A DNA stretch of 17,770 nucleotides. Origin: a virus. Positions 1-17,770 of this stretch are shown here, in pieces. The translations under genes were made by a program, and so were the position numbers. The stretch is taken from UHGV virus genome UHGV-0302460; one strand, written 5' to 3'. Every line of letters starts with the position of its first letter. The stretch's first letter is position 1. A model generated the notes under the pieces. The model saw nothing but the letters and a program-made list of their open reading frames with translations, searched no databases and was not told where the DNA came from.

Positions 1-319
1 AGTGATGAGAGCAACAGGCTGAATCAGGGCGTGTTTGTTGATGACTGGGGGCGTCCCGAAAAATATCTGGTGTATAAAAGTCGTCCCGTATCCGGACGGC
101 AGATGGAAACCAAAGAAGTGGATGCAGAGCGAATGCAGACGTCCCGCGCATCTGGTGCAGACGGCGAACAAATTTAAGATGCAGCATTCGCTCTGCATCC
201 ACTTCTTTGGTTTCCATCTGCCGTCCGGATACGGGACGACTTTTATACACCAGATATTTTTCGGGACGCCCCCAGTCATCAACAAACACGCCCTGATTCA
301 GCCTGTTGCTCTCATCACT
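1..319. repeat. Perfect inverted repeat pair at left window edge: arm 1..136 is the reverse complement of arm 184..319, with a 47-bp non-palindromic spacer (137..183)
   Basis: Checked base by base: reverse complement of 1..136 equals 184..319; the match stops at 137/183. Arm 1 starts at the window boundary, so the repeat may continue beyond the window. Confidence 0.9.
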
Positions 320-856
320 GGTCATGGGAATAAAGTCTGGCTCGAGCGCCTCCAGCCAGAAATGAACACCGGCAGAAGGCGTCAGGCTGTTTATGCGCCC
401 GGAAACCATCTGGGCAAACACCTCACCATCGCGCAGCCAGGTACGCAGCATCAGACGTTCCAGCATCGGACGGGTAAACTGCCCGGTGACTTCCGGGCTG
501 ACAGACCATTCACTCCATCGGGTGCGAATCTCCGCAGCCAGGTCACGGGCAATGGCCCCATTGCGTAATACCGGATGTGGCTCGACAATAATCCCGTTTT
601 TCCCCACCACCCGTTCTTCCAGCTTGTCAAATACACCAATAACCAGATCGTGGTTGTTATCAAGGTAACGGGCCTGCTCACGTAACGACACGGCCCCGTA
701 CTGGCTTAGCTGGTCGGCAGTTCGGTTCTCCCGTCGGGCTTTGTGTGTCCGCGTCGTTTTTACGGCTTCATAAGCCTGGATCACCGCACGGGAACGCAGC
801 CTTGCCGCTTTCCATCCTGGTGAAAAAACGCCAATCACATCATCAAGAATTGCCAT
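137..856 (-). CDS. Phage portal protein, lambda-like family, 5' part only; the gene runs into the fold-back repeat
   Basis: ATG at 856..854 overlaps the gpW-like stop (TGATG). The frame is open to the window start. Translation MAILDDVIGVFSPGW...GVFVDDWGRPEKYLVYKSRPVSGRQMETKEVDAERMLHLKFVRRLHQMRGTS has portal-like character and the position after terminase and gpW fits. It was missing from the ORF track because it runs off the window edge. Codons read from 136..1 are the inverted copy of 184..319 and are probably not real portal sequence. Confidence 0.65.
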
Positions 857-1074
857 CAGAACCTCGCCAGCCGGTACCCGGGATGCCCCCGTCGTCGTGT
901 AATCAGAGCCGCAAGGCGGCGCTCCCACTCCTGCCGCCCCTGCCGGATCTCAGATAAGTTTTCCATGGTCATCTGCTGACCATTAAAGGTGACGGATTTT
1001 CCGTCCAGCACCGCCATTTCAGCTTCCGTATAACGCTGAATCATGGCTTCGATATCATTCTGGTTCATAACCAT
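856..1074 (-). CDS. gpW-like head-tail joining protein
   Basis: 72-aa ORF between large terminase and portal, the same position as lambda W. C-terminal RRRGHPGY resembles lambda W RRRGPAGF. Start overlaps the terminase stop. Confidence 0.55.
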   Translation of the reverse strand: MVMNQNDIEAMIQRYTEAEMAVLDGKSVTFNGQQMTMENLSEIRQGRQEWERRLAALITRRRGHPGYRLARF

Positions 1075-3167
1075 CCTCCGGAAGTCAGCCAGGGGTTAAC
1101 ATCGTCAGTTACTGTTTTCTTCCGTTTTTGTTTTTTAACAGGCGTGGATACCGGTTCCGGTGAGGATGACGGTTCGGTACTGTCCTGGACACACTCCAGC
1201 CAGGTTTCCCGGCTCGCCCACTCCGGTGCATCCGGCCAGCGGATCTTTTCGTATCCATGCAGAATGACCAGAGCCTCGGCATACACCATCAGGTCAAAAG
1301 CTTCGTTGGCACCGCGACCCGGCTTACTCCATTTCCCGTCACTGCTCCGCTCTTCATACGTCAGTTCGTCGTAAAACCAGCTCCCCAGCCAGTCAGGGAA
1401 ATGCACATAGCCGGGACCTGGCGAGTCACGCCATAACGCGTTATTCACCCGGTCTTTCAGTGCATCCGTCTGAAGAAGCCAGAGCGGCACATCACCTGCG
1501 GCCTGCGCCCGTCGGCCCGTTCGTCCGGTGTTATCAGGGAATGTACGGGTGATCAGTTTTGCGCGCCGGATGCTGTCGCCCTTAAACAGGTAAATACGTT
1601 TACCAAGGCCATCACGACGGCAACGACGCCAGAATTTATAGGCATTATCAGTGACCCCGTCTTCACCGCCGGAGTCCACCGCCATTGCCATCAGTCGCAT
1701 TTGTTGAGAAGGATCGGAGGCCAGCGGCCAGCTTTTATGAAAAACATCCGTCAGCAGGACATCCCAGTCTTCCGGATAGCTGGCCGGATCAATTCGCTGG
1801 CTCTCCCCGTCGCTGTCACCGCGCAATGACTGCGTGATGTTGTAACGATCAATAATCCAGCGTTCGCCACGGCTGCCATAGCCCGTTACCTGAACCACAA
1901 AACGGCGATGACGTCCCGCCTGCACATCCACTGTCGCCACAAGGAAATTAACGCCATCCGGCACACTGCGGGAAGGAACTGGCTCTGCCCGCTGCTCAAG
2001 CAGTTCACTTTTTCGTTGCTCCATGCTGGCGCGGGGAAGATAAGGTAATCCCCAGTCGGTATTGATAACCGTCTTGAGTGTTTCTTCACTTCCGGTTGTC
2101 TCGTATTCCTGTTCTGCAGTAAGCAGTTTGTAAACGAGTTGCGAGAGTGTCTGGTAAGCAGCTGCCGGACCCTCCATCCAGAATGACGCAATACGTGAGC
2201 GTCGGGGATCACCATAACGACTGCCATCCGCATTGATGGATTCACCATCCCGCAACCAGACCCCACGTCCGTTCAGCTCACGTTTTTGTTCAGGCATAAT
2301 CCGTCCTGAACAGGAAGGACACTGAATATAAGCCGCCTCACTTGCCAGCACGGGATCGGCAATATCACGGAAACCAGCAACCACATCGCCGCAGGGCTGA
2401 AAATACTCACCACAGTGTGGACAAGGCCAGTACCAGCGACGGCGATCGCCACGGTTATAGAGCGACAGTATCCCCGTGGTTGGTGGAGCCTCATGCGGTG
2501 AAGTCCGTCGCCATTTCACATCCTTCACATCCCTGCCGGGGGAACTCTCCACAAGCGTCATACCACTGGACATAAATGTTGTGGTACGTTTTGAGGCAAG
2601 AGAGAAAGCATCCCCCTCGCCATCAATATCTTCCGGAAAACGGTCATAATCCGTCAGCGCGACGCATTTATAATCTGATGAGGACATGATATTGACTGAC
2701 GGCCAGCCGATTTTCAGGTAGTTACCAGCAAGGAATGTTCTGTCATAAACGTTGTTGTCATTTTTGTTCGGACTCAGGCGACTGACCACTTCCGGGCTGA
2801 CGCGAAACGTTCTGGCGAGTCGTTTTTTGGAGTGTTCGCGGGCTTTTTCCTCCGTCATCTGTATGATCAGCATATCAGCAGGATCGCAAATCACGTTGTA
2901 AATCACCCAGCCGTCAATCAGGCCGATAGTCTTGCCGGTTCGTGCCGGGCCAACAAATATCACTGCGTCGTATTCACGCGAGGCCAGGCAGTTCATCGGC
3001 TCAATAACATACGGTGCCACCAGCGGATCCCACGGGACTGAGTTCCCTGCCCCCATGGGCACCCGCATATACTGAGCAACGGCATCAGCAACCCGCATTC
3101 GTCTCGGTGCGCGAAGGATATAACCTGAATCGGTTCGTGCTGCCTTTGCGGTTTCCTGATTCAGCAT
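1065..3167 (-). CDS. Terminase large subunit, lambda gpA-like
   Basis: 700-aa ORF with a Walker A-like GPARTGKT motif and a WPCPHCGEYFQ motif resembling lambda A ACPHCGEEQYL. Its ATG overlaps the stop of the upstream small terminase (TAATG). Confidence 0.85.
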   Translation of the reverse strand: MLNQETAKAARTDSGYILRAPRRMRVADAVAQYMRVPMGAGNSVPWDPLVAPYVIEPMNCLASREYDAVIFVGPARTGKTIGLIDGWVIYNVICDPADMLIIQMTEEKAREHSKKRLARTFRVSPEVVSRLSPNKNDNNVYDRTFLAGNYLKIGWPSVNIMSSSDYKCVALTDYDRFPEDIDGEGDAFSLASKRTTTFMSSGMTLVESSPGRDVKDVKWRRTSPHEAPPTTGILSLYNRGDRRRWYWPCPHCGEYFQPCGDVVAGFRDIADPVLASEAAYIQCPSCSGRIMPEQKRELNGRGVWLRDGESINADGSRYGDPRRSRIASFWMEGPAAAYQTLSQLVYKLLTAEQEYETTGSEETLKTVINTDWGLPYLPRASMEQRKSELLEQRAEPVPSRSVPDGVNFLVATVDVQAGRHRRFVVQVTGYGSRGERWIIDRYNITQSLRGDSDGESQRIDPASYPEDWDVLLTDVFHKSWPLASDPSQQMRLMAMAVDSGGEDGVTDNAYKFWRRCRRDGLGKRIYLFKGDSIRRAKLITRTFPDNTGRTGRRAQAAGDVPLWLLQTDALKDRVNNALWRDSPGPGYVHFPDWLGSWFYDELTYEERSSDGKWSKPGRGANEAFDLMVYAEALVILHGYEKIRWPDAPEWASRETWLECVQDSTEPSSSPEPVSTPVKKQKRKKTVTDDVNPWLTSGGWL

Positions 3168-3661
3168 TACTCCTCCCGCTGTAATTCCTCCTCATCATCC
3201 GCACCTGCTTCGGTCACCCGCAGGGCTATCTGATCGCGCAGATCATCAATAATGGACTGAACACGGCTCACAGCGGCAGGCTGCAGACCGCAGTCACGTT
3301 CAAGAATATCCGGTAATGTCTCCAGCACCTGCACGACCGCTTTTGCCCAGATGGCAAACTCCCGTCTGACATCACTGGCCGGAATGAGTTGTGCCGTTTC
3401 CTGTTCGAACTTAAGACGCTCACGTTCAGACTGATACCAGGCTTTGCGCTCATGCGCGTCCATTTCGCCTTCTGCAACCGGCGGTGGTAATGCCAGAAAT
3501 GCCGACACAATATCAACCACCCGATAAAGCTTGAGGTTGCTTTCATGCCCCCCTGCAACGGGTAGATTTTGCAGCCTTGCCGCAGCAGTCTGGCGATGTA
3601 CACCTGACAGTGCCGCCAGTTGACTGATATTCAGCGTCAGATTTTTTAACTCTCGATCCAT
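3167..3661 (-). CDS. Terminase small subunit, Nu1-like
   Basis: 164-aa ORF directly upstream of, and translationally coupled to, the large terminase. N-terminal HTH-like segment (LTLNISQLAALSGVHRQTAAARL) and acidic C-terminus. A cos-like site lies about 170 bp upstream. Confidence 0.65.
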   Translation of the reverse strand: MDRELKNLTLNISQLAALSGVHRQTAAARLQNLPVAGGHESNLKLYRVVDIVSAFLALPPPVAEGEMDAHERKAWYQSERERLKFEQETAQLIPASDVRREFAIWAKAVVQVLETLPDILERDCGLQPAAVSRVQSIIDDLRDQIALRVTEAGADDEEELQREE

Positions 3662-3824
3662 ACCCGCTCCAGAATGTTTTAAACATGCATCTTGCGAACA
3701 ACTTTAGGCAAACGGTGTTAGTGATGAACAAAAAACAATCAAAATCGACACCACAAAAATAAAACCACTGTAATATCAATACATTACAGCAGTGGTGATG
3801 ACGAATGAAATTTCAAAAACTAGC

Positions 3825-3880
3825 CTTTTTCCGCGACGCTCCCGCCCCGTGGCAGGCCACCCCACCGGAAGGACCCGCCA
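3825..3880 (-). other. Putative cos packaging site (cosQ/cosN-like)
   Basis: Minus strand reads GCGGGTCCTTCCGGTG...CCACG GGGCGGGAGCGT CGCGG. From memory, the lambda right end and cos read ACGGGTCCTTTCCGGTGATCCGACAGGTTACG GGGCGGCGACCT CGCGGG. The putative 12-nt core maps to 3836..3847 and matches the lambda cohesive end at 8 of 12 positions, with conserved flanks. Confidence 0.45.
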
Positions 3881-4114
3881 AAATGAGAGTGATTATCACC
3901 ATTGCTGATGAATAAATTGATGAAAATCATTGAAACGCCTTTCAGCAAGATAACGGCGACGGTCGTTGTTGAACTCCGTAGCTCTGCTACTAAGGTTAAA
4001 AGCATGGCCATCTTTTGCCACCGGCAAATCTTCAATGGATTTCCCCTGCCGGTTTTTTATTCCTCACATTATCGCAGCCCCTCAGTGAAGGGCTGCTGTA
4101 ATGCCTGCTCTTAC

Positions 4115-4477
4115 TCAGTAACGACCGCGCCTTCCGGTAATTTCATACCGGCAAATACCGGACAGCCCGGGGATCGTTATCTGCAGCTGGTTAGCCAGGG
4201 AGTTAATCTCAGCGACCAACACTGGCTTCGTATAGCGCCATGCCGCCAGCCCTTGTCCACAGAAGCTCGCCATATCTTTTTTCTGATCAAACTCATGACA
4301 CTTCATATTGAGCTGCGCACTTAAGCTGTTGCGATGCTGAAGTTCTCCGGTGAAGTAGTCATCCAGGACTTTATAGGCTGCATATTTAAATCCGGGGTTT
4401 AGCCATGCTGCATAATCATAAGCAACAAACTTCCCGCCATATGTTCCACCGTGTACACCGCGCTCAGTAAAAACCAC
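4115..4477 (-). CDS. Hypothetical protein; N-terminus resembles the C-terminal half of a KilA-N domain, possibly a 5'-truncated remnant
   Basis: 120-aa ORF with a GTG start 21 nt after the minus-strand Rz stop. GGTYGGKFVAYDYAAWLNPGF resembles the KilA-N C-terminal motif GTWvHp.lA...A.WLsPeF, but the N-terminal half of the domain is absent. Confidence 0.35.
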   Translation of the reverse strand: MVFTERGVHGGTYGGKFVAYDYAAWLNPGFKYAAYKVLDDYFTGELQHRNSLSAQLNMKCHEFDQKKDMASFCGQGLAAWRYTKPVLVAEINSLANQLQITIPGLSGICRYEITGRRGRY

Positions 4478-4498
4478 AGATTCGTGTTTTTTCTCCAG

Positions 4499-4645
4499 CT
4501 ACTTAATGCGCTGGGTGCGGATATATTCCTGCGCCCCTTCCAGTTGCTTCTGCATCGTCATCAACCGTTCTCTGAGGGTGAAATAATCCCGTTCAGCGGT
4601 GTCTGCCAGTCGGGGGCTGGTTGCATTATCCATGCTGGTGGGTCC
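4499..4645 (-). pseudogene. Rz (i-spanin) C-terminal fragment on minus strand
   Basis: Minus-strand translation ...[50 protein letters not shown] with stop at 4501..4499 matches the lambda Rz C-terminus pattern. Its upstream continuation is broken at 4645/4646. Confidence 0.6.
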
Positions 4646-4913
4646 CGCTGACATGCAGCAGCGTCAGCGTGATGTTGCTGCGATCGATGCAAAATACACG
4701 AAGGAGTTAGCCGATGCGAAAACTGAAAATGAAACTCTGCGCGCTGATGTTGCCGCTGGTCGTAAGCGCCTGCGGGTCAATGCCAGTTGCTCCGCAGCCG
4801 TGCGTGAAGCCACCGGACCCACCAGCATGGATAATGCAACCAGCCCCCGACTGGCAGACACCGCTGAACGGGATTATTTCACCCTCAGAGAACGGTTGAT
4901 GACGATGCAGAAG
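4646..4913 (+). pseudogene. Internal Rz fragment in inverted (plus) orientation
   Basis: Plus-strand translation [88 protein letters not shown] is a contiguous mid-to-C-terminal Rz segment. It lacks the N-terminal TM anchor and the native C-terminus. Confidence 0.6.
4714..4899 (+). CDS. Rz1-like o-spanin lipoprotein, copy 1, nested in the inverted Rz fragment
   Basis: 61 aa: [61 protein letters not shown]. Signal peptide with lipobox-like VVSAC and a proline-rich body, typical of lambda Rz1, in the +1 frame inside Rz. Confidence 0.6.
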
Positions 4914-5222
4914 GCGCTTACGACCAGCGGCAACATCAGCGCGCAGAGTTTCATTTTCAGTTTTCGCATCGGCTAACTCCTTCGTGTATTTTGCATCGAT
5001 CGCAGCAACATCACGCTGACGCTGCTGCATGTCAGCGATGGTGGCGGTCGCCTGCTTCAGCTCACTGACTTTTTTATCACGCTGTTCTTTGTAGGCGATG
5101 GCGTTATCACGGTAATGATTGACCGCCCACGACAGGCAGACGATGATGCAGATAACCAAAGCATAAATAATCGCGGCGACTCTGAGTGAGCTGAAGCAGT
5201 CGATCGCCACCATCGCTGACAT
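4912..5222 (-). pseudogene. Rz (i-spanin) N-terminal fragment on minus strand, with TM anchor
   Basis: Minus-strand translation ...[93 protein letters not shown] matches the lambda Rz N-terminus [21 protein letters not shown].... The expected native start near 5184 is replaced by a junction; the only ATG is a fortuitous one at 5222. The fragment ends at the 4911/4912 junction. Confidence 0.6.
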
Positions 5223-5526
5223 GCAGCAGCGTCAGCGTGATGTTGCTGCACTCGATGCAAAGTACTCGAGAGAATTAGCCAATGCGAAAGCTGAAAATGA
5301 AACTCTGCGCGCTGATGTTGCCGCTGGTCGTCGTCGGTTGCACATCAAAGCAGTCTGTCAGTCAGTGCGTGAAGCCACCACCGCCTCCGGCGTGGATAAT
5401 GCAGCCTCCCCCCGACTGGCAGACACCGCTGAACGGGATTATTTCACCCTCCGGGAACGACTGGTAATGATGCAGGCCCAACTTGAAGGTGCTCAGCAAT
5501 ACATAACCGAGCAGTGTTTAAAGTAA
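5185..5526 (+). pseudogene. Rz (i-spanin) copy 2, N-terminally truncated, lacking the TM anchor
   Basis: Translation (L)[113 protein letters not shown] is very close to lambda Rz from about residue 45 to the end. There is an in-frame stop at 5164..5166 and the first ATG is at 5221. This resembles the rzpR pseudogene situation in the K-12 Rac prophage. Confidence 0.7.
5282..5467 (+). CDS. Rz1-like o-spanin lipoprotein, copy 2
   Basis: 61 aa: [61 protein letters not shown], nearly identical to lambda Rz1 as I remember it. Lipobox VVGC; nested in the +1 frame of Rz copy 2. Confidence 0.8.
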
Positions 5527-5663
5527 AATCTTAACTACAATATGATTCATTTTGATGATTGTTTCATAAGGAACAGTGAAGTAAGATCTAAGAGGAGTTA
5601 AATTTTATACAGTATAATCATAATATTGCAGCAAGGTGGTTATAATTGAAAGAATATTTAGAT

Positions 5664-7121
5664 ATGAATACATCTCATGTAAGAGTTGTTACTCATATGT
5701 GTGGGTTCCTGGTTTGGCTCTATAGTCTTTCAATGTTGCCACCAATGGTTGTAGCATTGTTTTATAAAGAAAAAAGCCTGTTCGTTTTCTTTATAACTTT
5801 CGTTATATTTTTTTGCATTGGTGGCGGAGCGTGGTATACAACTAAGAAATCTGGCATTCAATTACGTACCCGTGATGGGTTTATTATAATTGTAATGTTT
5901 TGGATTTTGTTTTCTGTTATTAGTGCATTCCCTTTATGGATTGACTCAGAACTTAATTTAACGTTCATTGATGCTCTGTTTGAAGGGGTTTCTGGAATAA
6001 CAACAACAGGAGCAACTGTAATTGATGATGTTAGTTCATTACCTCGGGCATATTTGTACTATCGGTCACAGTTAAATTTTATAGGTGGTTTAGGAGTTAT
6101 TGTTCTGGCGGTTGCTGTATTGCCATTATTGGGTATTGGTGGTGCAAAGCTTTATCAGTCAGAAATGCCGGGGCCATTTAAGGATGACAAACTCACTCCC
6201 CGCCTGGCCGATACGTCACGGACACTGTGGATAACTTATTCTTTATTAGGTATTGCTTGTATTGTCTGTTATAGACTTGCAGGAATGCCTTTGTTTGATG
6301 CTATTTGTCACGGGATTTCCACAGTTTCGCTTGGTGGTTTCTCAACTCATAGCGAGAGTATCGGATATTTTAATAACTATTTGGTTGAGCTGGTGGCTGG
6401 TTCTTTTTCCCTGCTATCGGCTTTCAACTTCACTCTTTGGTATATTGTTATTAGCAGGAAAACGATAAAACCTTTAATCAGAGATATTGAACTTCGTTTC
6501 TTTCTGTTAATAGCCTTAGGGGTGATCATTGTTACCTCTTTCCAGGTCTGGCATATAGGTATGTATGACTTGCATGGAAGTTTTATTCATTCGTTTTTTC
6601 TTGCCAGCTCCATGCTCACTGATAATGGTTTAGCTACGCAGGATTATGCAAGTTGGCCCACGCACACGATAGTGTTTTTGCTGTTGTCAAGTTTCTTTGG
6701 GGGATGTATAGGTTCAACTTGTGGTGGAATTAAGTCACTTCGATTTCTTATACTTTTCAAACAAAGCAAACACGAGATAAATCAGCTTTCTCATCCCAGA
6801 GCGTTGTTGAGTGTAAATGTAGGAGGGAAGATAGTTACAGATCGTGTAATGAGGTCTGTATGGAGTTTCTTTTTTCTTTATACTCTCTTCACGGTGTTTT
6901 TTATACTGGTGTTAAATGGTATGGGATATGATTTTCTTACATCATTTGCAACAGTGGCTGCATGTATTAATAATATGGGATTAGGTTTTGGGGCTACTGC
7001 ATCGTCATTCGGAGTGCTTAATGACATTGCAAAATGTTTAATGTGCATAGCTATGATTCTTGGTCGCCTTGAAATTTATCCTGTTATTATATTGTTTTCA
7101 GGTTTTTTTTGGCGCTCCTAA
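5664..7121 (+). CDS. trkG: TrkH/TrkG-family potassium uptake membrane protein
   Basis: Reading from the ATG at 5664 gives 485 aa starting MNTSHVRVVTHMCGFLVWLYSLSM..., which I recognise as E. coli TrkG (a Rac prophage gene). It is a multi-pass membrane protein with GIGG-type selectivity-filter-like motifs (LLGIGG, GFGATA). The coding region is strongly AT-rich compared with its flanks. The ORF-track start at 5646 is a TTG upstream extension. Confidence 0.88.
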   Translation: MNTSHVRVVTHMCGFLVWLYSLSMLPPMVVALFYKEKSLFVFFITFVIFFCIGGGAWYTTKKSGIQLRTRDGFIIIVMFWILFSVISAFPLWIDSELNLTFIDALFEGVSGITTTGATVIDDVSSLPRAYLYYRSQLNFIGGLGVIVLAVAVLPLLGIGGAKLYQSEMPGPFKDDKLTPRLADTSRTLWITYSLLGIACIVCYRLAGMPLFDAICHGISTVSLGGFSTHSESIGYFNNYLVELVAGSFSLLSAFNFTLWYIVISRKTIKPLIRDIELRFFLLIALGVIIVTSFQVWHIGMYDLHGSFIHSFFLASSMLTDNGLATQDYASWPTHTIVFLLLSSFFGGCIGSTCGGIKSLRFLILFKQSKHEINQLSHPRALLSVNVGGKIVTDRVMRSVWSFFFLYTLFTVFFILVLNGMGYDFLTSFATVAACINNMGLGFGATASSFGVLNDIAKCLMCIAMILGRLEIYPVIILFSGFFWRS

Positions 7122-7258
7122 TATATGGCTGATTTATAATTGTGAGTTTAATATTATGTTGACTCACTCATTGATCCAATACCTAACTTTACCAGCAACC
7201 CCTCCGTCCCCAGTAGCACTGGCTGCTGGGGTGCGTTTTATTCATAAAGCAAGGCTGT

Positions 7259-8050
7259 ATGAGCGAGAAATTAAAGATAGTCTATCGCCCATTACAAGAA
7301 TTGTCACCGTATGCGCACAACGCCAGGACGCACAGTACTGAGCAGGTGGCACAACTGGTAGAAAGTATTAAGCAATTCGGCTGGACTAATCCGGTGCTGA
7401 TTGACGAAAAGGGCGAAATTATTGCGGGTCACGGTCGTGTTATGGCGGCTGAAATGCTCAAAATGGATTCTGTTCCGGTCATTGTTCTGTCTGGCCTGAC
7501 GGATGAGCAGAAAAAGGCGTACCGCCTGGCAGATAATCGCCTGCCGATGAATGCTGGCTGGGATGAAGATCTGTTGCGGATGGAGCTGTCGGACCTAATC
7601 AATGCTGATTTTGATGTCTCCCTGACAGGCTTCATCCCGACAGAAATTGATGAACTGTTGACGGATGTTTTGCCCGGTACAGGAAATGAGGAGGAGCCGT
7701 ATACGACGAAAATTGATACGCCTGTTTATGAGCCGTCGGGCGGTAAACCGGATATCAGTGAACTGTACGACGATACGAAAACTCAGGAGCTGATCAGCCG
7801 GATACGTTCGGCGTCCCTTGAGCCTGATATTGAGAAATTCCTCCTGTGTGCGGCAGAACGTCACACGGTGTTTAATTTCAGCAGAATTGCGGACTATTAC
7901 GCTCACGCCCCCTCTGAAATTCAGTGTTTTTTCGAGGAGTCGGCGCTGGTGATCATTGATTATCAGCAGGCTATTGAAAATGGATTTGTCCGGATGACGC
8001 AGCGCATGGTGGAGATCATGCATGGTGGTGAGGAGGAGGAATATGCGTGA
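7259..8050 (+). CDS. ParB-like nuclease domain protein
   Basis: The 263-aa N-terminus IVYRPLQELSPYAHNARTHSTEQVAQLVESIKQFGWTNPVLIDEKGEIIAGHGRVMAA fits the ParB/Srx N-terminal domain pattern (GxGR motif). The position after trkG matches the ynaK region of Rac. Confidence 0.7.
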   Translation: MSEKLKIVYRPLQELSPYAHNARTHSTEQVAQLVESIKQFGWTNPVLIDEKGEIIAGHGRVMAAEMLKMDSVPVIVLSGLTDEQKKAYRLADNRLPMNAGWDEDLLRMELSDLINADFDVSLTGFIPTEIDELLTDVLPGTGNEEEPYTTKIDTPVYEPSGGKPDISELYDDTKTQELISRIRSASLEPDIEKFLLCAAERHTVFNFSRIADYYAHAPSEIQCFFEESALVIIDYQQAIENGFVRMTQRMVEIMHGGEEEEYA

Positions 8051-8975
8051 TGATTTTTGCGCCTTTATTCTGACTCACGGGCGACCGGACAAAGTTCTGA
8101 CTTACCGGACGTTGCGTCGTGCTGGCTATACCGGGAAAATTTTTATCGTTGTTGATGATGAAGATAAGACACGGAATCAGTACATGGCTGAATTTGGTGA
8201 ACAGGTGCTGGTGTTTTCCAAAGCCGATATCGCCAGTCGTTTTGACGAAGCCGATAATTTCTGTGACCGCCGCTCAATTTTTTACGCCCGTAATGCCTGT
8301 TTCGACCTGGCAAAACTGGTCGGGTGTAAATACTTCATTCAGCTCGATGATGATTATCACGAGTTCCAGTTTCGGGTGGATCGCAACTATGACCAGGCCT
8401 ATTTTCCGATAAGGAAACTGGATGCGATCCTTTCTGAAATGCTGGCGTACTACGAATCAATACCTGCTCTTTCCATCGCTATGTCGCAGGGCGGGGATTT
8501 TCTTGGTGACAATGGCGGCCATGCTTCGTGGGTGAAACGCAAGGCAATGAACAGCTTTATCTGTTCGGTTGATCGACCGTTCTCATTCATGGGGCGCATT
8601 AACGAGGATGTGAATACGTACACGAATCTCGGTCGCTGTGGTGAATTGTTTATGACGATCGGTGCTGTCCAGTTAGGGCAGAAACAGACGCAGAAAAACA
8701 GCGGCGGAATGACCGAGCTGTATCTGGATTCCGCAACCTACGTTAAAAGTTTTTACTCCGTCATGTATGCGCCGTCGTGCGTAAAAATCTCACTGATGGG
8801 TGCCAGCCATAAACGCATTCACCATCAGGTCACCTGGAACAACGCTGCAGTAAAAATCCTTCACGAAAAATACAGGAAGAAGACACCCTGCATATCAATG
8901 GGGGTGACAAATGATTCCGTATTCGAAAGTCGAGTCTCTGGCAGCGTGCCGGATGACTGCACAACAAATCGCTGA
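8043..8975 (+). CDS. Hypothetical protein with possible GT-A glycosyltransferase-like features; function unknown
   Basis: ATG at 8043 follows a strong SD (GAGGAGGAGGA, 8029..8039) and overlaps the ParB-like stop, so it is preferred over the ORF-track start at 8022. N-terminal FILTHGRPDKVL...KIFIVVDDED and a later QLDDDY motif resemble a GT-A Rossmann-like fold with a DxD motif; this is a weak, motif-level call. Confidence 0.5.
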   Translation: MRDDFCAFILTHGRPDKVLTYRTLRRAGYTGKIFIVVDDEDKTRNQYMAEFGEQVLVFSKADIASRFDEADNFCDRRSIFYARNACFDLAKLVGCKYFIQLDDDYHEFQFRVDRNYDQAYFPIRKLDAILSEMLAYYESIPALSIAMSQGGDFLGDNGGHASWVKRKAMNSFICSVDRPFSFMGRINEDVNTYTNLGRCGELFMTIGAVQLGQKQTQKNSGGMTELYLDSATYVKSFYSVMYAPSCVKISLMGASHKRIHHQVTWNNAAVKILHEKYRKKTPCISMGVTNDSVFESRVSGSVPDDCTTNR

Positions 8976-9162
8976 CGTTCTGGATGTTGATCTGAACCGA
9001 CTGAAAGAAAATCGGGAAGCAATGACAGATTTTTATGCGGCCATCCGTAAGGGCAGAGCGAAAGGTGAAGCCGAGTTACGAGCGGCATTGTTTAAGCTTG
9101 CCAGAAAAGGGGATGCCTTTGCTCTGCGCGAACTACTCAGGGTGGATAAAAATCAGGACTAA
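8911..9162 (+). CDS. Small HTH-like protein, possibly terminase-associated
   Basis: 83-aa ORF immediately upstream of the small terminase. The helix-turn-helix-like segment MTAQQIADVLDVDLNRL is followed by a basic helical region. Start is uncertain (8911 or 8953); it overlaps the upstream gene by 65 nt if 8911 is used. Confidence 0.45.
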   Translation: MIPYSKVESLAACRMTAQQIADVLDVDLNRLKENREAMTDFYAAIRKGRAKGEAELRAALFKLARKGDAFALRELLRVDKNQD

Positions 9163-9165
9163 CTG

Positions 9166-10260
9166 ATGAGCAGACCGGACTGGGGGGCGTTGCAGCAGGA
9201 GTATATTGCTGAATACACCCGCTCCGGTATATCTCCGGTGGCATGGTGTGAAGCAAGGGGACTGAATTACGCAACAGCCCGTCGTTACATCAAAAAAACT
9301 CCGAAAAATGCGCAGACAGAAATGTGCAAAACTGCGCAAAAAAGTGCGCAGAAAAAATCTGCGCAGACTGCACAAAAGCGGAACGAAAAATCTCAGGAAA
9401 AAAAGCCAGTATTCGATGCGGGCCTGAATGAGGGCGACGCGGAGGAATTTTCGTTCTGTCCCGATGAATTCGGCATTTCTGACCAGCAGGCTAAGTTTGC
9501 GATGCTTGTTGCTCAGGGTAAAAAGCCGACAGAGGCGTACCGACTAGCCGGTTATGAGGGGCAAGGTGCGACAGCTAACAGCAACGCCAGTCGTATGCTT
9601 AGAAATGCCAGGGTTTTTCGCGCTATCAGCTACTTCCGCAATCAGTACCAGAAACGCTATACCGCAGACCTGGATTTACTAGTGAGTCAGTTGATGGCTA
9701 TTGTCCTGGCCGACCCCAATCAGCTTGCACAATTTCGCCGTGTTAACTGCCGTTATTGCTGGGGCGAGAATCATCTCTACCAGTGGCGCGATATAGCAGA
9801 ATTCGACAAGGCAGCGGCGCAGGCTTCCAGAGATGGCAAACCCGAACCGGAATATGGAGGCCTCGGCTTTGTTGATAACGCCATACCCAATCCGGACTGC
9901 CCGAAGTGCTGCGGTGAGGGAACGGGACAGCTTTATATGGCTGATACCACTCTGCTTGATGGGGATGCGCGGCAATTATATGCAGGGGCAAAATTCGGAA
10001 AATTCGGCGTTGAGATCCTGCTGGAGGATAAGGCTGCCGCCCGGCGTGAATTGTTGCGTTTGTTTTCTGCTGGCGGGGCTTTATGTGCAGATAAACGGCT
10101 ACAGGAACTGGAAATTGAACGGCGCAGAATGGAAAACCAGAAGCTGCGCAAAGAGATCGAAACGGTGGAAGATAATGAACATCCCCAGCCTGTGGCGATC
10201 AATATTAATGTGGTTGATGCCAGAGTAAGGAGTGATGAAGATGATCTCTCCGACGCTTAA
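9166..10260 (+). CDS. Terminase small subunit (P27-like family), long form with Cys4 motif
   Basis: Central segment ISDQQAKFAMLVAQGKKPTEAYRLAGYEG...NASRMLRNARV matches the terminase small-subunit signature. It sits directly upstream of the large terminase. It also has a low-complexity K/A/Q-rich stretch, a CRYCWG...CPKCCGEG zinc-ribbon-like motif and a C-terminal coiled-coil-like segment. Confidence 0.7.
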   Translation: MSRPDWGALQQEYIAEYTRSGISPVAWCEARGLNYATARRYIKKTPKNAQTEMCKTAQKSAQKKSAQTAQKRNEKSQEKKPVFDAGLNEGDAEEFSFCPDEFGISDQQAKFAMLVAQGKKPTEAYRLAGYEGQGATANSNASRMLRNARVFRAISYFRNQYQKRYTADLDLLVSQLMAIVLADPNQLAQFRRVNCRYCWGENHLYQWRDIAEFDKAAAQASRDGKPEPEYGGLGFVDNAIPNPDCPKCCGEGTGQLYMADTTLLDGDARQLYAGAKFGKFGVEILLEDKAAARRELLRLFSAGGALCADKRLQELEIERRRMENQKLRKEIETVEDNEHPQPVAININVVDARVRSDEDDLSDA

Positions 10261-11542
10261 TGTGCCTCAGGCGCGATTTCTTTCAATGCCCCATAAATTT
10301 AAAGCCTATATTGCTGGTTTTGGCTCGGGCAAAACATGGGTTGGGTGTGGCGGCATATGCAAGGGGATTTGGGAGCATCCAGGTATAAATCAGGGATATT
10401 TTGCGCCAACGTATCCCCAAATTCGCGATATTTTTTACCCTACAGTGGAAGAAGTTGCTGCTGACTGGGGATTGAACGTAAAAATTAATGAGGGAAATAA
10501 AGAGGTTCACTTTTATTACGGACGCCAGTATCGGGGAACCACTATCTGCAGATCGATGGAGAAGCCACAAACGATCGTCGGTTTCAAAATTGGTAATGCG
10601 TTGGTGGATGAACTGGACATTTTGCCGAAGGAAAAAGCCAGAACGGCGTGGCGCAAGATAATTGCACGTATGCGTTATAAGATTGATGGACTTCGCAACG
10701 GTATTGACGTTACAACCACGCCGGAAGGATTCAAATTTGTCTACGAGCAGTTTGTTAAAGCCGTGCGTGAAAAAACAGAGCTGGCCTCACTGTATGGTCT
10801 GGTGCAGGCATCTACTTTCGATAATGAAAAGAACCTGCCAGCAGATTACATTCCTTCGCTTCTTGAATCATACCCTCCAGAGCTGATTAAAGCCTATCTT
10901 CGAGGACAGTTTACTAACCTGACAAGTGGTACTGTTTACCATCAGTTTGACCGGAAACTGAATAATTGCGAAGAAGTGGAGCAGCCAGGGGAGCCGATTT
11001 ATATTGGGATGGATTTTAACGTTGGAAAGATGGCGGGAATCGTCCATGTGCTGCGTTTGGGGCTTCCATGTGCGGTAACTGAAATCATCAATGCCTACGA
11101 TACGCCGGATATGATCCGCATCATTAAAGAACGCTTCTGGCTGTATGATGGGAATGATTACCGGAAAGTGAGGGAAATTTATATTTATCCAGATGCTTCC
11201 GGGGATTCCAGAAAATCAAGTAACGCAAGTACGACGGATATAGCCCAGCTTAAGCAGGCTGGTTTTAACGTTGTGGTGAACAGCTCGAACCCGCCAGTAA
11301 AAGATCGCGTTAACTCAATGAATGCAATGTTCTGCAATGCCAATGGTGAGCGTCGCTATAAAGTTAATGTGAAGCGTTGCCCGTTATATGCCGAATCTCT
11401 GGAGCAACAGGTCTGGGATGAGAAGGGGGAGCCTGATAAAAAATCTGGCAATGATCACCCGAATGATGCCGGAGGTTATTTCATCGTTAAGCAATTCCCT
11501 ATTGTCAAACCGACCGGAAGAGTCACATCACTTCGGATTTAA
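10241..11542 (+). CDS. Terminase large subunit
   Basis: Walker A-like AGFGSGKTW near the N-terminus, nuclease-type acidic residues in the C-terminal half, and a position between small terminase and portal. The ATG at 10241 is preferred because of the AAGGAG at 10227..10232; alternative starts are the GTG at 10232 and the ATG at 10235. Confidence 0.85.
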   Translation: MISPTLNVPQARFLSMPHKFKAYIAGFGSGKTWVGCGGICKGIWEHPGINQGYFAPTYPQIRDIFYPTVEEVAADWGLNVKINEGNKEVHFYYGRQYRGTTICRSMEKPQTIVGFKIGNALVDELDILPKEKARTAWRKIIARMRYKIDGLRNGIDVTTTPEGFKFVYEQFVKAVREKTELASLYGLVQASTFDNEKNLPADYIPSLLESYPPELIKAYLRGQFTNLTSGTVYHQFDRKLNNCEEVEQPGEPIYIGMDFNVGKMAGIVHVLRLGLPCAVTEIINAYDTPDMIRIIKERFWLYDGNDYRKVREIYIYPDASGDSRKSSNASTTDIAQLKQAGFNVVVNSSNPPVKDRVNSMNAMFCNANGERRYKVNVKRCPLYAESLEQQVWDEKGEPDKKSGNDHPNDAGGYFIVKQFPIVKPTGRVTSLRI

Positions 11543-11544
11543 TT

Positions 11545-12951
11545 ATGGCTGATATATCAACACCCAACCTCGACTATAACGATATGCTGGAGGCGTGGGA
11601 TATTAACGACGCACTGATGGGCGGTACGCTTGAAATGCGCAGGCAGGGGGAAAATTATCTCCCAAAATGGCCTAACGAAGATGAAGACGCTTATAAAAAA
11701 CGCCTGTCTGTGGCTACGCTACTTCCTGTGTATGAAGAAAGCATCAAGCAAAATATTGGGCGCATATTTGCAGAGCCGACAGTATTGAGTGAGGAAACGC
11801 CGGCAAAAATCAGGGAATATGCAGAAAATATCGACATGGAGGGGAGCCGACTGGATGTGTGGGCGCAGCAATTTTTCAGCCTCGCATTTCAGTATGGTGT
11901 GGCACATGCGCTGGTGGACTATCCACGAACGGATATGAAAGAGATTCGTACAAAAGCCGATGAAAACGCGACCGGTGGTCGTCCGTACGTTACGATGCTG
12001 AATCCACGCCAGGTTATTGGATGGAAATCGAAAGTTGAAAAAGGGAAAGTTGTTCTCACTGATTTGCGTATAAAAGAGGTCATCATTATTGATGGTGATG
12101 ATTTCGGGCAGAAGAAGGTGGAGCAGATCCGCCATATTATGCCCCGTCGAGTTGAAATTTATCGACGTAGCGAAGGCACTAATGGCGAATCTGTCTGGAC
12201 GCTTCATGAGTCATGGAATACCAGCCGTGATGATATTCCTCTGGTAACACTGTACACGAAGAAAACAGGATTTATGCGTGGTACACCGCCATTGCTTAAT
12301 CTTGGCTTGCTGAATATCAAGCACTGGCAAAGCCAGAGCGAGCAGGACAATATTCTTCATGTTACCCGCGTTCCATTGCTGGTGGCCTACGGGCTGGACA
12401 GGAATGAAGAACTGACGGTTGGTGCATCCACCGCTACGATTTTTGAGGACAGAACAAAAAATGGCCTCGAATATGTTGAACATAGTGGCGCAGCGATAGA
12501 ATCTGGCGAAACATCACTTGAGAAGCTGGAAAATCAGATGCGTCATGCCGGCGCTAAACTTCTGCGTGCTGAAAATACATCCACCAAATCTGTTGATCAG
12601 ACTAATGAAGAGCGAATGCAGGAAAACTCGCCGCTTTATACAATGGCGAACTCCCTCGAAGATGCCCTCGATAATATTCTCCAGATAATGGCGGAATGGA
12701 TCGGAGAGAGTTGCGGTGGCAATGTGGATGTGCGCACTGAACTGGATGTATCTGCCCAGGTGTTTGACTCATCCTCCGCGCTGGCTGTTCAGTCATTGCG
12801 TCAGGGCGGTGATATACGTCAGATTGATGCGGTTCGGGTGTTGCAGGCGTTGAAATTTATCGATCAGGATTCCCGTCCAGAGGAAGTGATCGATGAATTA
12901 AAAAATCAGAGTGTAATGCTGATGGAAATCAATGATGCAAACCGTGAATGA
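11545..12951 (+). CDS. Phage portal protein
   Basis: 468-aa ORF immediately after the large terminase and before the head-morphogenesis gene, with size and position typical of a portal. No motif was verified. Confidence 0.7.
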   Translation: MADISTPNLDYNDMLEAWDINDALMGGTLEMRRQGENYLPKWPNEDEDAYKKRLSVATLLPVYEESIKQNIGRIFAEPTVLSEETPAKIREYAENIDMEGSRLDVWAQQFFSLAFQYGVAHALVDYPRTDMKEIRTKADENATGGRPYVTMLNPRQVIGWKSKVEKGKVVLTDLRIKEVIIIDGDDFGQKKVEQIRHIMPRRVEIYRRSEGTNGESVWTLHESWNTSRDDIPLVTLYTKKTGFMRGTPPLLNLGLLNIKHWQSQSEQDNILHVTRVPLLVAYGLDRNEELTVGASTATIFEDRTKNGLEYVEHSGAAIESGETSLEKLENQMRHAGAKLLRAENTSTKSVDQTNEERMQENSPLYTMANSLEDALDNILQIMAEWIGESCGGNVDVRTELDVSAQVFDSSSALAVQSLRQGGDIRQIDAVRVLQALKFIDQDSRPEEVIDELKNQSVMLMEINDANRE

Positions 12952-14047
12952 ACGGCTGCGTGATGAATCAATTGCTCATGCAGTCTGGATATCCCGCTAT
13001 AGCACTGGCGTGGCTGCCAGAATGGTGAAAATACTGAATGACAGCGATGCGGAACTTACTGCTCGCCTGCTGATAGCACTGGACAGCCTCGATCCAGGTA
13101 ATTTTACCGTTAAGCGCCTGGAGTCACTTCTGGCGAGCGTCAGAGAGGTTAACCGCACTGCTATTAACAGCATGTTTACCAGTCTCTCCGGAGAGCTGAA
13201 CGAGCTGGCAATTTATGAGGCTGGTTATCAGTTAAGTCTGTTTGATTCTATGCTACCTGATTTTGTTGCTGATGTTCACCCTCTGGTTGGTATCTCTCCT
13301 GATGCACTTTATGCCGCTGCAATGGCGCGACCATTCCAGGGACGACTGCTCAGTGAGTGGGCCTCAGATCTTGAGGCGGATCGGCTCAGACGCATAACAA
13401 ATACAGTGCGTCAGGGTTTTTTGCTGGGGGATACCAATGAGCAGATCGCAAGAAAAATTCGGGGACATGTCAGTAAGGGATTTCAGGATGGTGCATTGCA
13501 GATGAGCCGGGCTAATGCGGCCAGCATTGCAAAAACAGCGGTTGGACATCTTGCTGCTACTGCCCGTGAGAGTTTTGCCAGCGCGAATAATGATTTGATT
13601 AAGGGTAAGCAATGGTTATCAACGCTTGATAATCGTACTACGCCACAATGTCGAATCAGGGATCGCCTCAAATATACGCTGAATAATAAACCTGTAGGTC
13701 ACAGCGTGCCTTATTTGCAGGGGCCGGGAAAAATTCATTTCTGCTGCCGCTCAACGGAAACGTTCATTCTGAAATCAGCGAAGGAACTGGGTATTGATGT
13801 TCGCGATATTTCCCCGGCTGAGCGGGCCAGCATGGATGGCGTGGTGGCCGGAGATACAACCTACAGGGAATGGTTTTTGCGTCAGCCTTACACCAGACAA
13901 AAACAGATTGTGGGGGAAACCCGAGCAAAGCTGATTCGGGATGGTGGTATGTCGCCAGATGAATTTTACACCGATAAAGGCGAATGGCTGACGCTGAAGC
14001 AGCTCCGTGAGCGTGATGCACAGGTATTCAGAAAAGCAGGGATTTAA
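12932..14047 (+). CDS. Head morphogenesis protein (Mu F-like / SPP1 gp7-like minor head protein)
   Basis: 371 aa following the portal. Contains the characteristic ...LSTLDNRTTPQCRIRD... motif seen in Mu F-like head morphogenesis proteins. Confidence 0.7.
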   Translation: MMQTVNERLRDESIAHAVWISRYSTGVAARMVKILNDSDAELTARLLIALDSLDPGNFTVKRLESLLASVREVNRTAINSMFTSLSGELNELAIYEAGYQLSLFDSMLPDFVADVHPLVGISPDALYAAAMARPFQGRLLSEWASDLEADRLRRITNTVRQGFLLGDTNEQIARKIRGHVSKGFQDGALQMSRANAASIAKTAVGHLAATARESFASANNDLIKGKQWLSTLDNRTTPQCRIRDRLKYTLNNKPVGHSVPYLQGPGKIHFCCRSTETFILKSAKELGIDVRDISPAERASMDGVVAGDTTYREWFLRQPYTRQKQIVGETRAKLIRDGGMSPDEFYTDKGEWLTLKQLRERDAQVFRKAGI

Positions 14048-14066
14048 ATAAATCATTTATTACAAC

Positions 14067-14093
14067 AGGCTACCTTCGGGTGGCCTTTTTTAT
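14067..14093 (+). terminator. Putative rho-independent terminator (UUCG tetraloop hairpin plus T-tract)
   Basis: AGGCTACC-TTCG-GGTGGCCT forms an 8-bp stem (one G-T wobble) with a TTCG loop, followed by TTTTTTATT, just downstream of the head-morphogenesis stop. Confidence 0.55.
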
Positions 14094-14151
14094 TGCTGCG
14101 ATCCGGATGGTGAGCAGCGTAACTGTCGGAAGACTTAAACCAGGTACTAAT

Positions 14152-14916
14152 ATGAAACTGAAAACGGTCGAGATTAACGGAAAACAATACGCAGAAATTG
14201 ATACTGCTGGCCTGCCAGTTTATGTGCACGACGATGGTAAAGAAATTGGCTTCGATGCACCGCTGGCGACAAAAAAAATTACAGAGCTTAATGGCGAGGC
14301 AAAAAATCATCGCCTGGCTAAAGAAGCTGCAGAGGAAAAACTGGCTAAGTTTGCCGCTATCGAAGACCCGAAGAAGGCGATCGAGGCACTGGAAATGCTG
14401 TCAAAAATCGACCAGAAAAAGCTGCTCGATGCGGGACAGGTTGACCAGGTTAAGGCAGAAATTACGAAAAATTTTCAGCAGCAATTAGATGAAGAAAAGC
14501 AACGCTCTCAGATGCTGGAGAAGCAGCTTTACGATTCTATGATTGGCGGTAGTTTTGCGGGTTCAAAATATATTGCCGATAAAATTGCGATCCCGGCAGA
14601 TTTATTACAAGCCCGCTTCGGGCAGGCATTCAAAGTGGAAGAAGGGAGGATCGTTGCTTATGACGCTTCCGGCAACAAAATTTATTCCCGCGCGAAGCCT
14701 GGCGAACTGGCGCAGTTTGATGAGGCGCTGGAGTTCCTTGTCGAAAATTACCCTCAGAAAGACTACATCCTGAAAGCCAGTGGCAACAATGGCGGCGGCT
14801 CCCGTCCGACACAGCATGATATTGGTCAGAAAACGATGAAACGCTCTGCTTTTGATGCACTGGATGTTGCAGGTAAGCAAAACGCATTGAAAGACGGTAT
14901 CACAATCGTTGATTAA
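14152..14916 (+). CDS. Scaffolding protein (putative)
   Basis: About 254 aa, charged and predicted helical (EEKLAKFAAIEDPKKAIEALEMLSKIDQKKLL...), located immediately upstream of the major capsid gene. Start is uncertain (ATG 14152 preferred; ATG 14107 possible). The ORF-track start at 14080 would lie inside the terminator hairpin. Confidence 0.55.
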   Translation: MKLKTVEINGKQYAEIDTAGLPVYVHDDGKEIGFDAPLATKKITELNGEAKNHRLAKEAAEEKLAKFAAIEDPKKAIEALEMLSKIDQKKLLDAGQVDQVKAEITKNFQQQLDEEKQRSQMLEKQLYDSMIGGSFAGSKYIADKIAIPADLLQARFGQAFKVEEGRIVAYDASGNKIYSRAKPGELAQFDEALEFLVENYPQKDYILKASGNNGGGSRPTQHDIGQKTMKRSAFDALDVAGKQNALKDGITIVD

Positions 14917-15014
14917 CACATTTGTCAGCTTCCGGATGGGAGCTGGTGTCAGGGCTGGATAGCTCATTACTCCATCTATTCACAATTACGCAAATTTTTA
15001 AGGAATATTTAATT

Positions 15015-16154
15015 ATGGCTGGAAATACCCTGACCGGGTTGATCCCGACTATTTATACCGCCCTGGATGTTGTATCCCGTGAGCAGGTAGGTTTTATCCC
15101 TGCGGTAGCAAAAAACGCAAAAGCTGACGCCGCAGCAAAAGATCAGACGGTAACCGCGCCAGTTGCGCCTGAGGCGAAAACCGAAGATATCGTACCGGGG
15201 CCGTCAGCTCCGAATACCGGTGATCAAAATATTGGCACTGTTGATGTAAAAATTACTAAATCCAAAATGGCACCGGTTAAATGGAATGGTGAAGAACAAC
15301 TGGCTCTTGGCCCTTCAGGGACTTACAACACCATTCTGGCTGATCAGTTCAAGCAGGCTTTTCGCGCCCTTGCAAACGAGGTTGAGGCTGATCTTGGTGC
15401 GTTGTATTTCGGTGCTTCCCGCGCCGTGGGAACCGCAGGGACAACGCCGTTTGGTGTTAAAGATGATCTTTCTGATGCTGCTCTGGCTCGTCAGGTTCTG
15501 GAGGATAACGGCGCACCGACAACCGATCTGCAGATGGTGCTTGGCTCCACTGCCATTGCTAATTTGCGCGGAAAACAGTCTGTATTGTTTAAAGTGAATG
15601 AATCCGGCACTGAACAGCTACTGCGTGAGGGCGTGTTGGGGCGTCTGGAGGGATTCAATATTCACAGTTCGGCAGGTGTGAAACGAGCGCCAAAGGTTGC
15701 TGCAACTGGTTATCTCGTGAATGGAGAGAAAAAAGAAGGCGATGTTCTTATTTCCATTGATACTGGTTCGGGGAGTATTTCTGCAGGTCAGATTGTTACG
15801 TTCGCTGGTGATCCGAATCAGTATGTTGTGGCAGCAGCGACCAGCAATCTGATTACTCTTGCAGCGCCCGGACTGCGTCAGGATCTGGCCGATGATACTG
15901 CCATCACAGTTGTTGGGGCCTTTACGGCAAATATGGCGTTTGATCGCAACGCGTTTCTGCTGGCATCCCGTACTCCGGCAATGCCGGAAGGTGGCGATAA
16001 TGCTGATGATGTAATGAATGTTACGGACCCGATTTCAGGGATTACGTTCCAGATTGCACTGTATCGTCAGTATCGCCAGGTGCGCTATGAAGTTGGACTG
16101 GCATGGGGTGTTTCATCAGTGAAGCCGGCACATGGTTGTCTGATTCTTGGTTAA
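15015..16154 (+). CDS. Major capsid protein (putative)
   Basis: ATG at 15015 follows AAGGA. About 379 aa, downstream of the scaffold and followed by a strong terminator. Segments such as TPFGVKDDLSDAALARQVLEDNGAP and GVLGRLEGFNIHSS resemble phage coat proteins. Confidence 0.7.
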   Translation: MAGNTLTGLIPTIYTALDVVSREQVGFIPAVAKNAKADAAAKDQTVTAPVAPEAKTEDIVPGPSAPNTGDQNIGTVDVKITKSKMAPVKWNGEEQLALGPSGTYNTILADQFKQAFRALANEVEADLGALYFGASRAVGTAGTTPFGVKDDLSDAALARQVLEDNGAPTTDLQMVLGSTAIANLRGKQSVLFKVNESGTEQLLREGVLGRLEGFNIHSSAGVKRAPKVAATGYLVNGEKKEGDVLISIDTGSGSISAGQIVTFAGDPNQYVVAAATSNLITLAAPGLRQDLADDTAITVVGAFTANMAFDRNAFLLASRTPAMPEGGDNADDVMNVTDPISGITFQIALYRQYRQVRYEVGLAWGVSSVKPAHGCLILG

Positions 16155-16164
16155 ACATTCAAAC

Positions 16165-16187
16165 GGGGCTTCGGCCCCATTTTTAAT
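16165..16187 (+). terminator. Putative rho-independent terminator (UUCG tetraloop hairpin plus T-tract)
   Basis: GGGGC-TTCG-GCCCC followed by ATTTTTAAT, 11 nt after the capsid stop. Confidence 0.55.
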
Positions 16188-16196
16188 GGGGGGCAT

Positions 16197-16373
16197 ATGG
16201 CCGGATTAACTAAAGAGCAAAGAGCACAGCGTGAAGCCGCACAAAAAACGCAAATTGAGTTAGTGGTTATGGTGACCGATTATCAGATGTTTCCCGGCGC
16301 ACCAACTATCGCTAATGTTCATCCTGATGAAGTTGACAACTGGAAGGCTGTGGGCTGGAAAACTCAGGAGTAA
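16197..16373 (+). CDS. Small hypothetical phage protein (58 aa)
   Basis: ATG at 16197 is preceded by a G-rich SD-like stretch. Translation MAGLTKEQRAQREAAQKTQIELVVMVTDYQMFPGAPTIANVHPDEVDNWKAVGWKTQE. It exactly fills the gap between the capsid terminator and the next gene. It falls below the ORF-track size cut-off. Confidence 0.4.
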   Translation: MAGLTKEQRAQREAAQKTQIELVVMVTDYQMFPGAPTIANVHPDEVDNWKAVGWKTQE

Positions 16374-16376
16374 CAC

Positions 16377-17563: not shown

Positions 17564-17770
17564 GTTGAAGGATCAGATCACGCATCCTCCCGACAACACA
17601 GACCATTCCGTGGCAAAGCAAAAGTTCAGAATCAGCCAGTTGGCGCTTGTTGTGAATGACCGTTTTCAAGAGCCTCTGCATAAGGAAGGTTATTCTGGAT
17701 ATAAATAACTCCGTAATTTGCAGCTTTCGAAATAACCCCGATCCCACGCTGAACAGCAATCGTACCGTTC
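17356..17770. repeat. Perfect inverted repeat pair at right window edge: arm 17356..17491 is the reverse complement of arm 17635..17770, with a 143-bp spacer
   Basis: Checked base by base; arms are 136 bp and the match stops at 17492/17634. Arm 1 lies inside the gp10-like gene; arm 2 ends at the last base of the window. Confidence 0.9.

Follow-up and report, generated by a model that had tools for sequence, protein, structure and literature searches.

The segment from 5527 to 7258 of the window (the whole stretch of DNA that was analyzed, 17,770 nucleotides) is very probably the trkG cassette of a Rac-type lambdoid Escherichia coli prophage, that is, a horizontally acquired, AT-rich, single-gene cargo with its own promoter. 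The features of the cassette and its surroundings are given in Table 1.

Table 1. Positions of features in the window and the evidence for them
Feature	Position	Strand	Evidence or remark
gpA-type TerL gene, left prophage	1065–3167	−	
DUF1441 small subunit (terminase) gene, left prophage	3167–3661	−	
ORF11CD3 protein gene, left prophage	4115–4477	−	
Rac-type Rz (i-spanin) gene, 3′ remnant	5185–5526	+	Pfam Phage_lysis; DNA homology to E. coli SE11 and K-12 Rz starts at 5185
Rz1 (rzoR-type o-spanin lipoprotein) gene, intact, 61 aa	5282–5467	+	+1 frame inside Rz
AT-rich trkG upstream region (approximately 25% G+C)	5527–5645	+	100% identical to K-12 and SE11
trkG, K+-translocating membrane subunit, TrkH family (from the probable start)	5646–7121	+	K-12 TrkG identity, family models, TrkH structures
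trkG downstream intergenic region	7122–7258	+	AT-rich to approximately 7175, then hairpin
ParB/Srx-like gene, full-length, 263 aa	7259–8050	+	Pfam ParB_N; SE11 and K-12 annotation

The annotated trkG ORF extends from an ATG at 5664 to 7121; it encodes 485 aa, the length given in the preliminary description, and is free of frameshifts and stop codons. The protein was identical to E. coli K-12 TrkG at 485 of 485 residues (100%) and 41% identical to K-12 TrkH, in agreement with the earlier assignment of this ORF to TrkG. It matched the Pfam TrkH model PF02386 with 484 bits (cut-off 27, E 5e-145, model positions 3–500 of 502) and TIGR00933 with 415 bits (cut-off 331), and it aligned end to end with the Vibrio parahaemolyticus TrkH structures (PDB 3PJZ and 4J9U; E 1e-120). 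E. coli TrkH (b3849) and V. parahaemolyticus TrkH are of the same family and length as TrkG, and their pore-loop motifs lined up with TTTG116, LGG224-225FSTH, DNG322, and NNMG439 of TrkG. The glycine-rich intramembrane loop (GGCxGSTxGG) was also conserved, with GGCIGSTCGGIK aligned to GGCAGSTGGGMK. TrkG has four pore-loop repeats with one conserved filter glycine each, the filter residues being assigned from the V. parahaemolyticus TrkH structure. With a score of 450 bits, TrkG did not reach the 866-bit cut-off of the TrkH equivalog model NF008020; it is part of a distinct TrkG clade within the Enterobacterales, whose members are 62–79% identical. The two proteins also differ in function: K+ uptake by K-12 TrkG is Na+-dependent and is accompanied by Na+ uptake, whereas uptake by TrkH does not depend on Na+, and TrkA is common to both (PMC9898762).

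Base composition was computed over the whole window. The cassette contained 37.4% G+C, compared with 53.2% for positions 1–5526 and 48.0% for positions 7259–17,770. Among 1258 segments of the same length (1732 nt), none of which overlapped 5527–7258, the minimum was 45.6% and the mean was 49.6% (SD 2.6); the cassette lay at z = −4.7. These values bear out the preliminary claims that this segment is more AT-rich than the surrounding phage genes and that trkG has its own AT-rich upstream region, since the 137 nt preceding the annotated ATG (5527–5663) contained 25.5% G+C. The trkG gene itself had 38.1% G+C and a GC3 of 0.32, compared with 0.46–0.55 for neighboring phage genes. On the left, the composition changed sharply at the stop codon of Rz (5526/5527); on the right, the change fell at approximately 7175–7200, about 60–85 nt short of the next gene. 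Inspection for flanking repeats or mobility genes near the cassette revealed only short repeats at chance level, and an Rfam scan of 3500–9300 (E ≤ 0.1) gave no match.

Although RefSeq places the trkG start at ATG 5664 (485 aa), the true start is probably TTG 5646, giving a product of 491 aa that begins with MKEYLDMNTSHV... This TTG is located 18 nt 5′ of the annotated ATG and 6 nt past a Shine–Dalgarno sequence, AAGGTGG, at 5633–5639; ATG 5664 is not preceded by one. In homologues of the TrkG clade, a Shine–Dalgarno sequence and a TTG or GTG codon were kept at exactly the position of TTG 5646. Where E. coli has the ATG, most of these homologues lacked a Met, and their genes had been called as encoding 491 aa; for Citrobacter trkG the gene caller was forced onto a CTG at that position. 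In tetracycline ribosome profiling (TetRP), the same start was listed as a new site, 'trkG TTG -18', with the sequence MKEYLDMNTSHV... (PMC4909307). In a published study, lacZ fusions gave no clear result for the TTG start. The comparative data provide independent support for this start, which has not been adopted.

The preliminary description had noted TATAAT-like elements upstream of trkG, and two exact TATAAT hexamers are present there, at 5613–5618 and 5641–5646. When the 137 nt were shuffled as mononucleotides, 4.5% of the shuffles had two or more TATAAT sequences on the + strand; given such AT-rich DNA, the pair is only mildly unusual. The hexamer at 5641–5646 overlaps the probable TTG start and is therefore unlikely to be a −10 element. 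The most plausible −10 candidate is the hexamer at 5613–5618, for which the 5′ end of the transcript would fall near 5625, ahead of the Shine–Dalgarno sequence. Enumeration of −10/−35 pairs upstream of trkG gave no good −35 for either hexamer, and the best full promoter match was TTTAAA-18-TATGAT at 5517–5546 (9 of 12 positions). A −35/−10 consensus scan of 5200–7500 found 5 sites, compared with 6.5 ± 2.8 in shuffles. Because promoter-like sites were no more frequent than in shuffles, a promoter could not be called from the sequence alone.

The 137 bp 5′ of trkG are identical in K-12, SE11, and the window; therefore, the regulation described for K-12 should apply here as well. In the K-12 Rac prophage, trkG is regarded as a foreign gene (38% vs. 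53% G+C). Its transcripts reach levels like those of trkH transcripts, H-NS binds trkG, H-NS (and StpA) reduce its expression without silencing it, and a trkG promoter fragment has been used to drive luciferase (PMC9898762). Genomic SELEX placed a constitutive RpoD promoter at trkG within Rac (PMC5811629). The earlier proposal that trkG is lysogenic-conversion cargo is in accord with the foreign origin, own promoter, and lysogen expression published for K-12. No terminator-like site was found between Rz and trkG, and Q-antiterminated late transcripts should consequently also include trkG.

Downstream of trkG, a terminator-like hairpin at 7208–7231 (10 pairs, 7 of them G-C) is followed by TGCGTTTTAT, a T-rich run. 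The hairpin was present in both the MFE and the centroid folds, and the fold of the whole region had a z of −1.9. Because it lies within the G+C-normal part of the intergenic region, the hairpin may belong to the phage backbone. The first backbone gene past the cassette is the ParB/Srx-like gene, and the order of genes in the window is Rz/Rz1, trkG, ParB-like gene, TAGT-type glycosyltransferase gene, small ORF (83 aa), TerS, TerL, and portal. The view that trkG interrupts a continuity of lysis genes, cos, and terminase was accurate in that trkG lies between Rz/Rz1 and the packaging module; however, three genes stand between trkG and the terminase. Moreover, the packaging module is P22-like, with Terminase_2, Terminase_6, and a P22-type coat, so that a cos site can only be assumed here, by analogy with lambda. 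The ParB/Srx-like gene and the overlapping gene for the TAGT-type (TET-associated) glycosyltransferase (7259–8975) are located just 5′ of TerS. Phages of Lactobacillus delbrueckii and L. gasseri carry the same pair at their left end, ahead of the packaging genes; it may be a DNA-modification or packaging-associated module.

On the other side of the cassette, the Rz ORF (5221–5526) encodes 101 aa that correspond to residues 54–154 of the intact 154-aa Rz and are 93% identical to SE11 Rz; the N-terminal 53 residues, the membrane anchor among them, are missing. The remnant matched positions 26–125 of 126 in the Pfam Phage_lysis model (E 7e-44). Rz1 matched positions 1–40 of 41 in the Pfam Rz1 model and, over its full 61 aa, was 95% identical to K-12 RzoR. 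The truncated Rz and intact Rz1 that had been likened to those of Rac are therefore both present, but the truncation resulted from a breakpoint other than that of K-12, which lies further upstream than the one at 5185 in the window.

Homology to the Rac-type Rz has an abrupt start at 5185, corresponding to nt 124 of that gene. At 5184/5185 two prophages meet head to head, and the Rz gene of the other lambdoid prophage stops 5 nt short of its start codon. Because the junction positions in the two Rz genes are not equivalent, this is not a simple homologous exchange. Positions 1–5184 form the late region of a second lambdoid prophage, whose genes here lie on the minus strand; this region has a match of 98–100% identity in strain AH01 and includes that prophage's own Rz up to the junction. 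Within it, 268 nt (4646–4913) are an exact (100%) inverted copy of their own flanks, with junctions at 4645/4646 and 4912/4913. Neither the 5184/5185 junction nor the rearranged order was found in any complete E. coli genome searched, and searches of metagenome and viral contigs gave no exact match to the junction 32-mer. The scrambled Rz region (4500–5331) reflects either a strain-specific prophage rearrangement or an assembly error. Elsewhere in the left prophage, positions 3662–4114, between the DUF1441 small terminase and ORF11CD3 genes, are non-coding and relatively AT-rich (43–47% G+C); a cos site of the lambda type would be expected at this place.

The 1.7-kb island was present in 1551 of 5426 complete E. 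coli genomes, as a rule once per genome, and was at least 99% identical in 1516 records. Rz, trkG, and the ParB-like gene (ynaK) occurred together in 1520 genomes, and the position of the island was nearly always this one. The phage collection contained 10 records with the island, all of them Rac-like; the other TrkH-family matches in that collection were chromosomal contaminants or unannotated fecal contigs with 30–43% identity. The same trkG arrangement was found in E. ruysiae. In Shigella flexneri (locus L014, 4414–5836), trkG is at the same prophage position in the form of frameshifted fragments whose apparent identity is 40–57%, next to a ParB-like gene that is interrupted as well; the broken trkG is a case of cargo decay in Shigella. 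In at least one E. coli genome, H121, trkG is interrupted by an IS element.

An empty site, with Rz followed directly by the ParB-like gene, was not found by DNA search of Rz–trkG–ParB against the phage collection or by ParB-like protein searches, which included Escherichia and Shigella contigs and tblastn of the module proteins. In Escherichia and Shigella genomes as well as in the phage collection, trkG stood upstream in all of the close ParB-like and terminase relatives, and the more distant ParB-like relatives were in unrelated phages. Because no empty-site relative was found, it is only the composition that points to an insertion, and its boundaries are not fixed by comparison. The same arrangement in E. 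ruysiae and the degraded copy at this place in S. flexneri, together with the missing empty site, indicate that the capture of trkG predates the spread of the Rac-type prophage in Escherichia.

Other members of the TrkG clade were found in E. fergusonii (79% identity), Citrobacter (77%), Pectobacterium (75%), Enterobacter (approximately 70%), Serratia (66%), and Xenorhabdus (62%). None of the five contexts examined outside Rac was a phage lysis–packaging junction; these genes were chromosomal or in other mobile elements. The E. fergusonii gene is beside porin genes, the Pectobacterium gene follows ychF, the Citrobacter gene is in a variable region, and the Enterobacter gene is in the core parC neighborhood and has a host-like G+C content of 57%. 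The Serratia gene (L009/L010, 300–9461) is in a P4-like island with AlpA and D5 primase, where it adjoins a Na+/alanine symporter gene and IS fragments. Among the copies measured, Rac trkG (38% G+C) was the most AT-rich. Both the failure to find an empty site and the chromosomal location of TrkG-clade genes in other Enterobacterales bear on the question of where the phage acquired trkG.

The cassette lies in the late region, on the strand of the late operon, with Rz/Rz1 on one side and the genes for the ParB-like protein, glycosyltransferase, and terminase on the other. We propose that in the lysogen, trkG would be transcribed from its own sigma-70 promoter in the upstream 137 bp and would be partially repressed by H-NS, as the identity to K-12 suggests. 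Q-antiterminated late transcription would also read through the gene, and the hairpin at 7208–7231 would end the promoter-driven transcripts ahead of the packaging genes. Translation would most likely start at TTG 5646, behind the strong Shine–Dalgarno sequence, and yield the 491-aa protein. Together with host TrkA, this TrkG would, from the literature, mediate Na+-dependent K+ uptake and some Na+ uptake beside the core-genome TrkH.

Several other explanations were considered. Low G+C could follow from the amino-acid make-up of a highly hydrophobic membrane protein, and not from foreign origin, and the residues F, Y, M, I, N, and K do make up 0.31 of TrkG compared with 0.28 of TrkH. However, E. 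coli trkH, which encodes a protein of the same fold and length, had a GC3 of 0.63, compared with 0.32 for trkG, and the neighboring phage genes were also well above trkG; the low G+C of the non-coding 137 bp and the 57% G+C of the Enterobacter core-context gene argue against the same explanation. Amino-acid bias does not explain the low G+C of trkG, and this possibility, which the GC3 comparison refutes, is extremely unlikely. It is also very unlikely that trkG has been silenced in this strain and persists there as a decaying passenger that no longer has a function. The binding and repression of trkG by H-NS (PMC9898762), the fragmented S. flexneri copy, and the IS element in the H121 copy would be expected of such a passenger, yet the ORF in the window is intact and its product is 100% identical to the functional K-12 protein. 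Furthermore, repression is partial and does not amount to silencing (PMC9898762), and the near-identity of the island across the E. coli records is not that of a decaying gene.

Alternatively, trkG might mainly serve the phage as a late-operon passenger expressed by Q-dependent read-through, for example by supplying K+ in lytic growth, with its expression in the lysogen being incidental. Its orientation on the same strand as the late genes, with no terminator-like site after Rz, is consistent with such a role, as are its very strong conservation and its constant position, also in apparently complete prophages and in E. ruysiae, with no empty-site relative. We nevertheless consider this quite unlikely: The K-12 Rac annotation contains no late-promoter region, holin, or endolysin, yet trkG is transcribed there at levels like those of trkH; K-12 TrkG contributes to K+ uptake, and its promoter fragment drives a reporter (PMC9898762); and an RpoD promoter has been assigned to it (PMC5811629). 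A more specific proposal, that selection on the phage has fixed trkG as part of the Rac-type late operon, with read-through expression that benefits the phage and the 491-aa TTG-initiated protein as its functional form, is speculative and rather unlikely. If it were true, the benefit might be restoration of K+ in lytic growth or a changed ion balance that excludes other phages. The reading we prefer is still that of an acquired, AT-rich cargo gene with its own promoter.

Genes of this kind have been called morons: single cargo genes in a late region that have deviant composition, their own promoter, and a terminator-like hairpin, are expressed in the lysogen, and are dispensable for phage growth. 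The lambda genes bor and lom are said to have been treated as phage morons in 2000 by Juhala and by Hendrix and their co-workers. In the literature searched, trkG and the word 'moron' occurred together only in incidental mentions. A sister phage without trkG at the same junction was not found, all of the relatives found carrying the gene, and in this trkG differs from bor and lom. It resembles them in being a single late-region cargo gene of deviant composition with a terminator-like hairpin downstream, which may or may not belong to it; an own promoter and expression in the lysogen, as published for K-12, and dispensability for phage growth would probably be further points in common.

The closest known counterpart is trkG (b1363) of the cryptic Rac prophage of K-12. 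The presence of trkG in Rac has reportedly been known since 1991; it is already described, and earlier publications cover its foreign origin, promoter, H-NS control, and ion selectivity. Nothing at 5527–7258 departs from that picture. In RefSeq, the order of genes in K-12 Rac is ydaW, rzpR (pseudogene), rzoR, trkG, ynaK, and ydaY; thus, the arrangement rzpR, rzoR, trkG had been given correctly in the preliminary description, and the window matches it, with the order Rz remnant, Rz1, trkG, ynaK common to both. The DNA of K-12 Rac, like that of SE11, is identical or nearly identical to the window from approximately 5300 (the 3′ part of rzpR/rzoR) to beyond the trkG start. In K-12, ynaK is cut to an 87-aa remnant of the 263-aa ParB-like gene, ydaY follows directly, and the annotation contains no terminase, portal, or head genes. 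The window, in contrast, has the full ParB-like gene and the glycosyltransferase, TerS, TerL, portal, and head genes.

The prophage of E. coli SE11 and 'Escherichia phage vB_EcoS-666R9' (ON470614) are collinear with the window and approximately 99% identical to it from 5185 to approximately 17,530. Both begin this region with Q, followed by holin, endolysin, and Rz/Rz1 (with an Rz of 154 aa), and continue with trkG, ParB-like gene, a 310-aa TAGT protein gene, a small ORF, TerS, TerL, portal, and head and tail genes. They differ from the window in having a complete Rz after holin and endolysin, whereas the 5′ part of Rz in the window has been replaced by an inverted piece of the other prophage. 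The trkG slot after Rz is the same in all three. Because the window is collinear with these prophages, the slot that trkG originally occupied, with the lysis module on one side and the packaging module on the other, is seen here, and the window provides an example of an undeleted Rac-type late region, with the trkG site as it was before the K-12 deletions.
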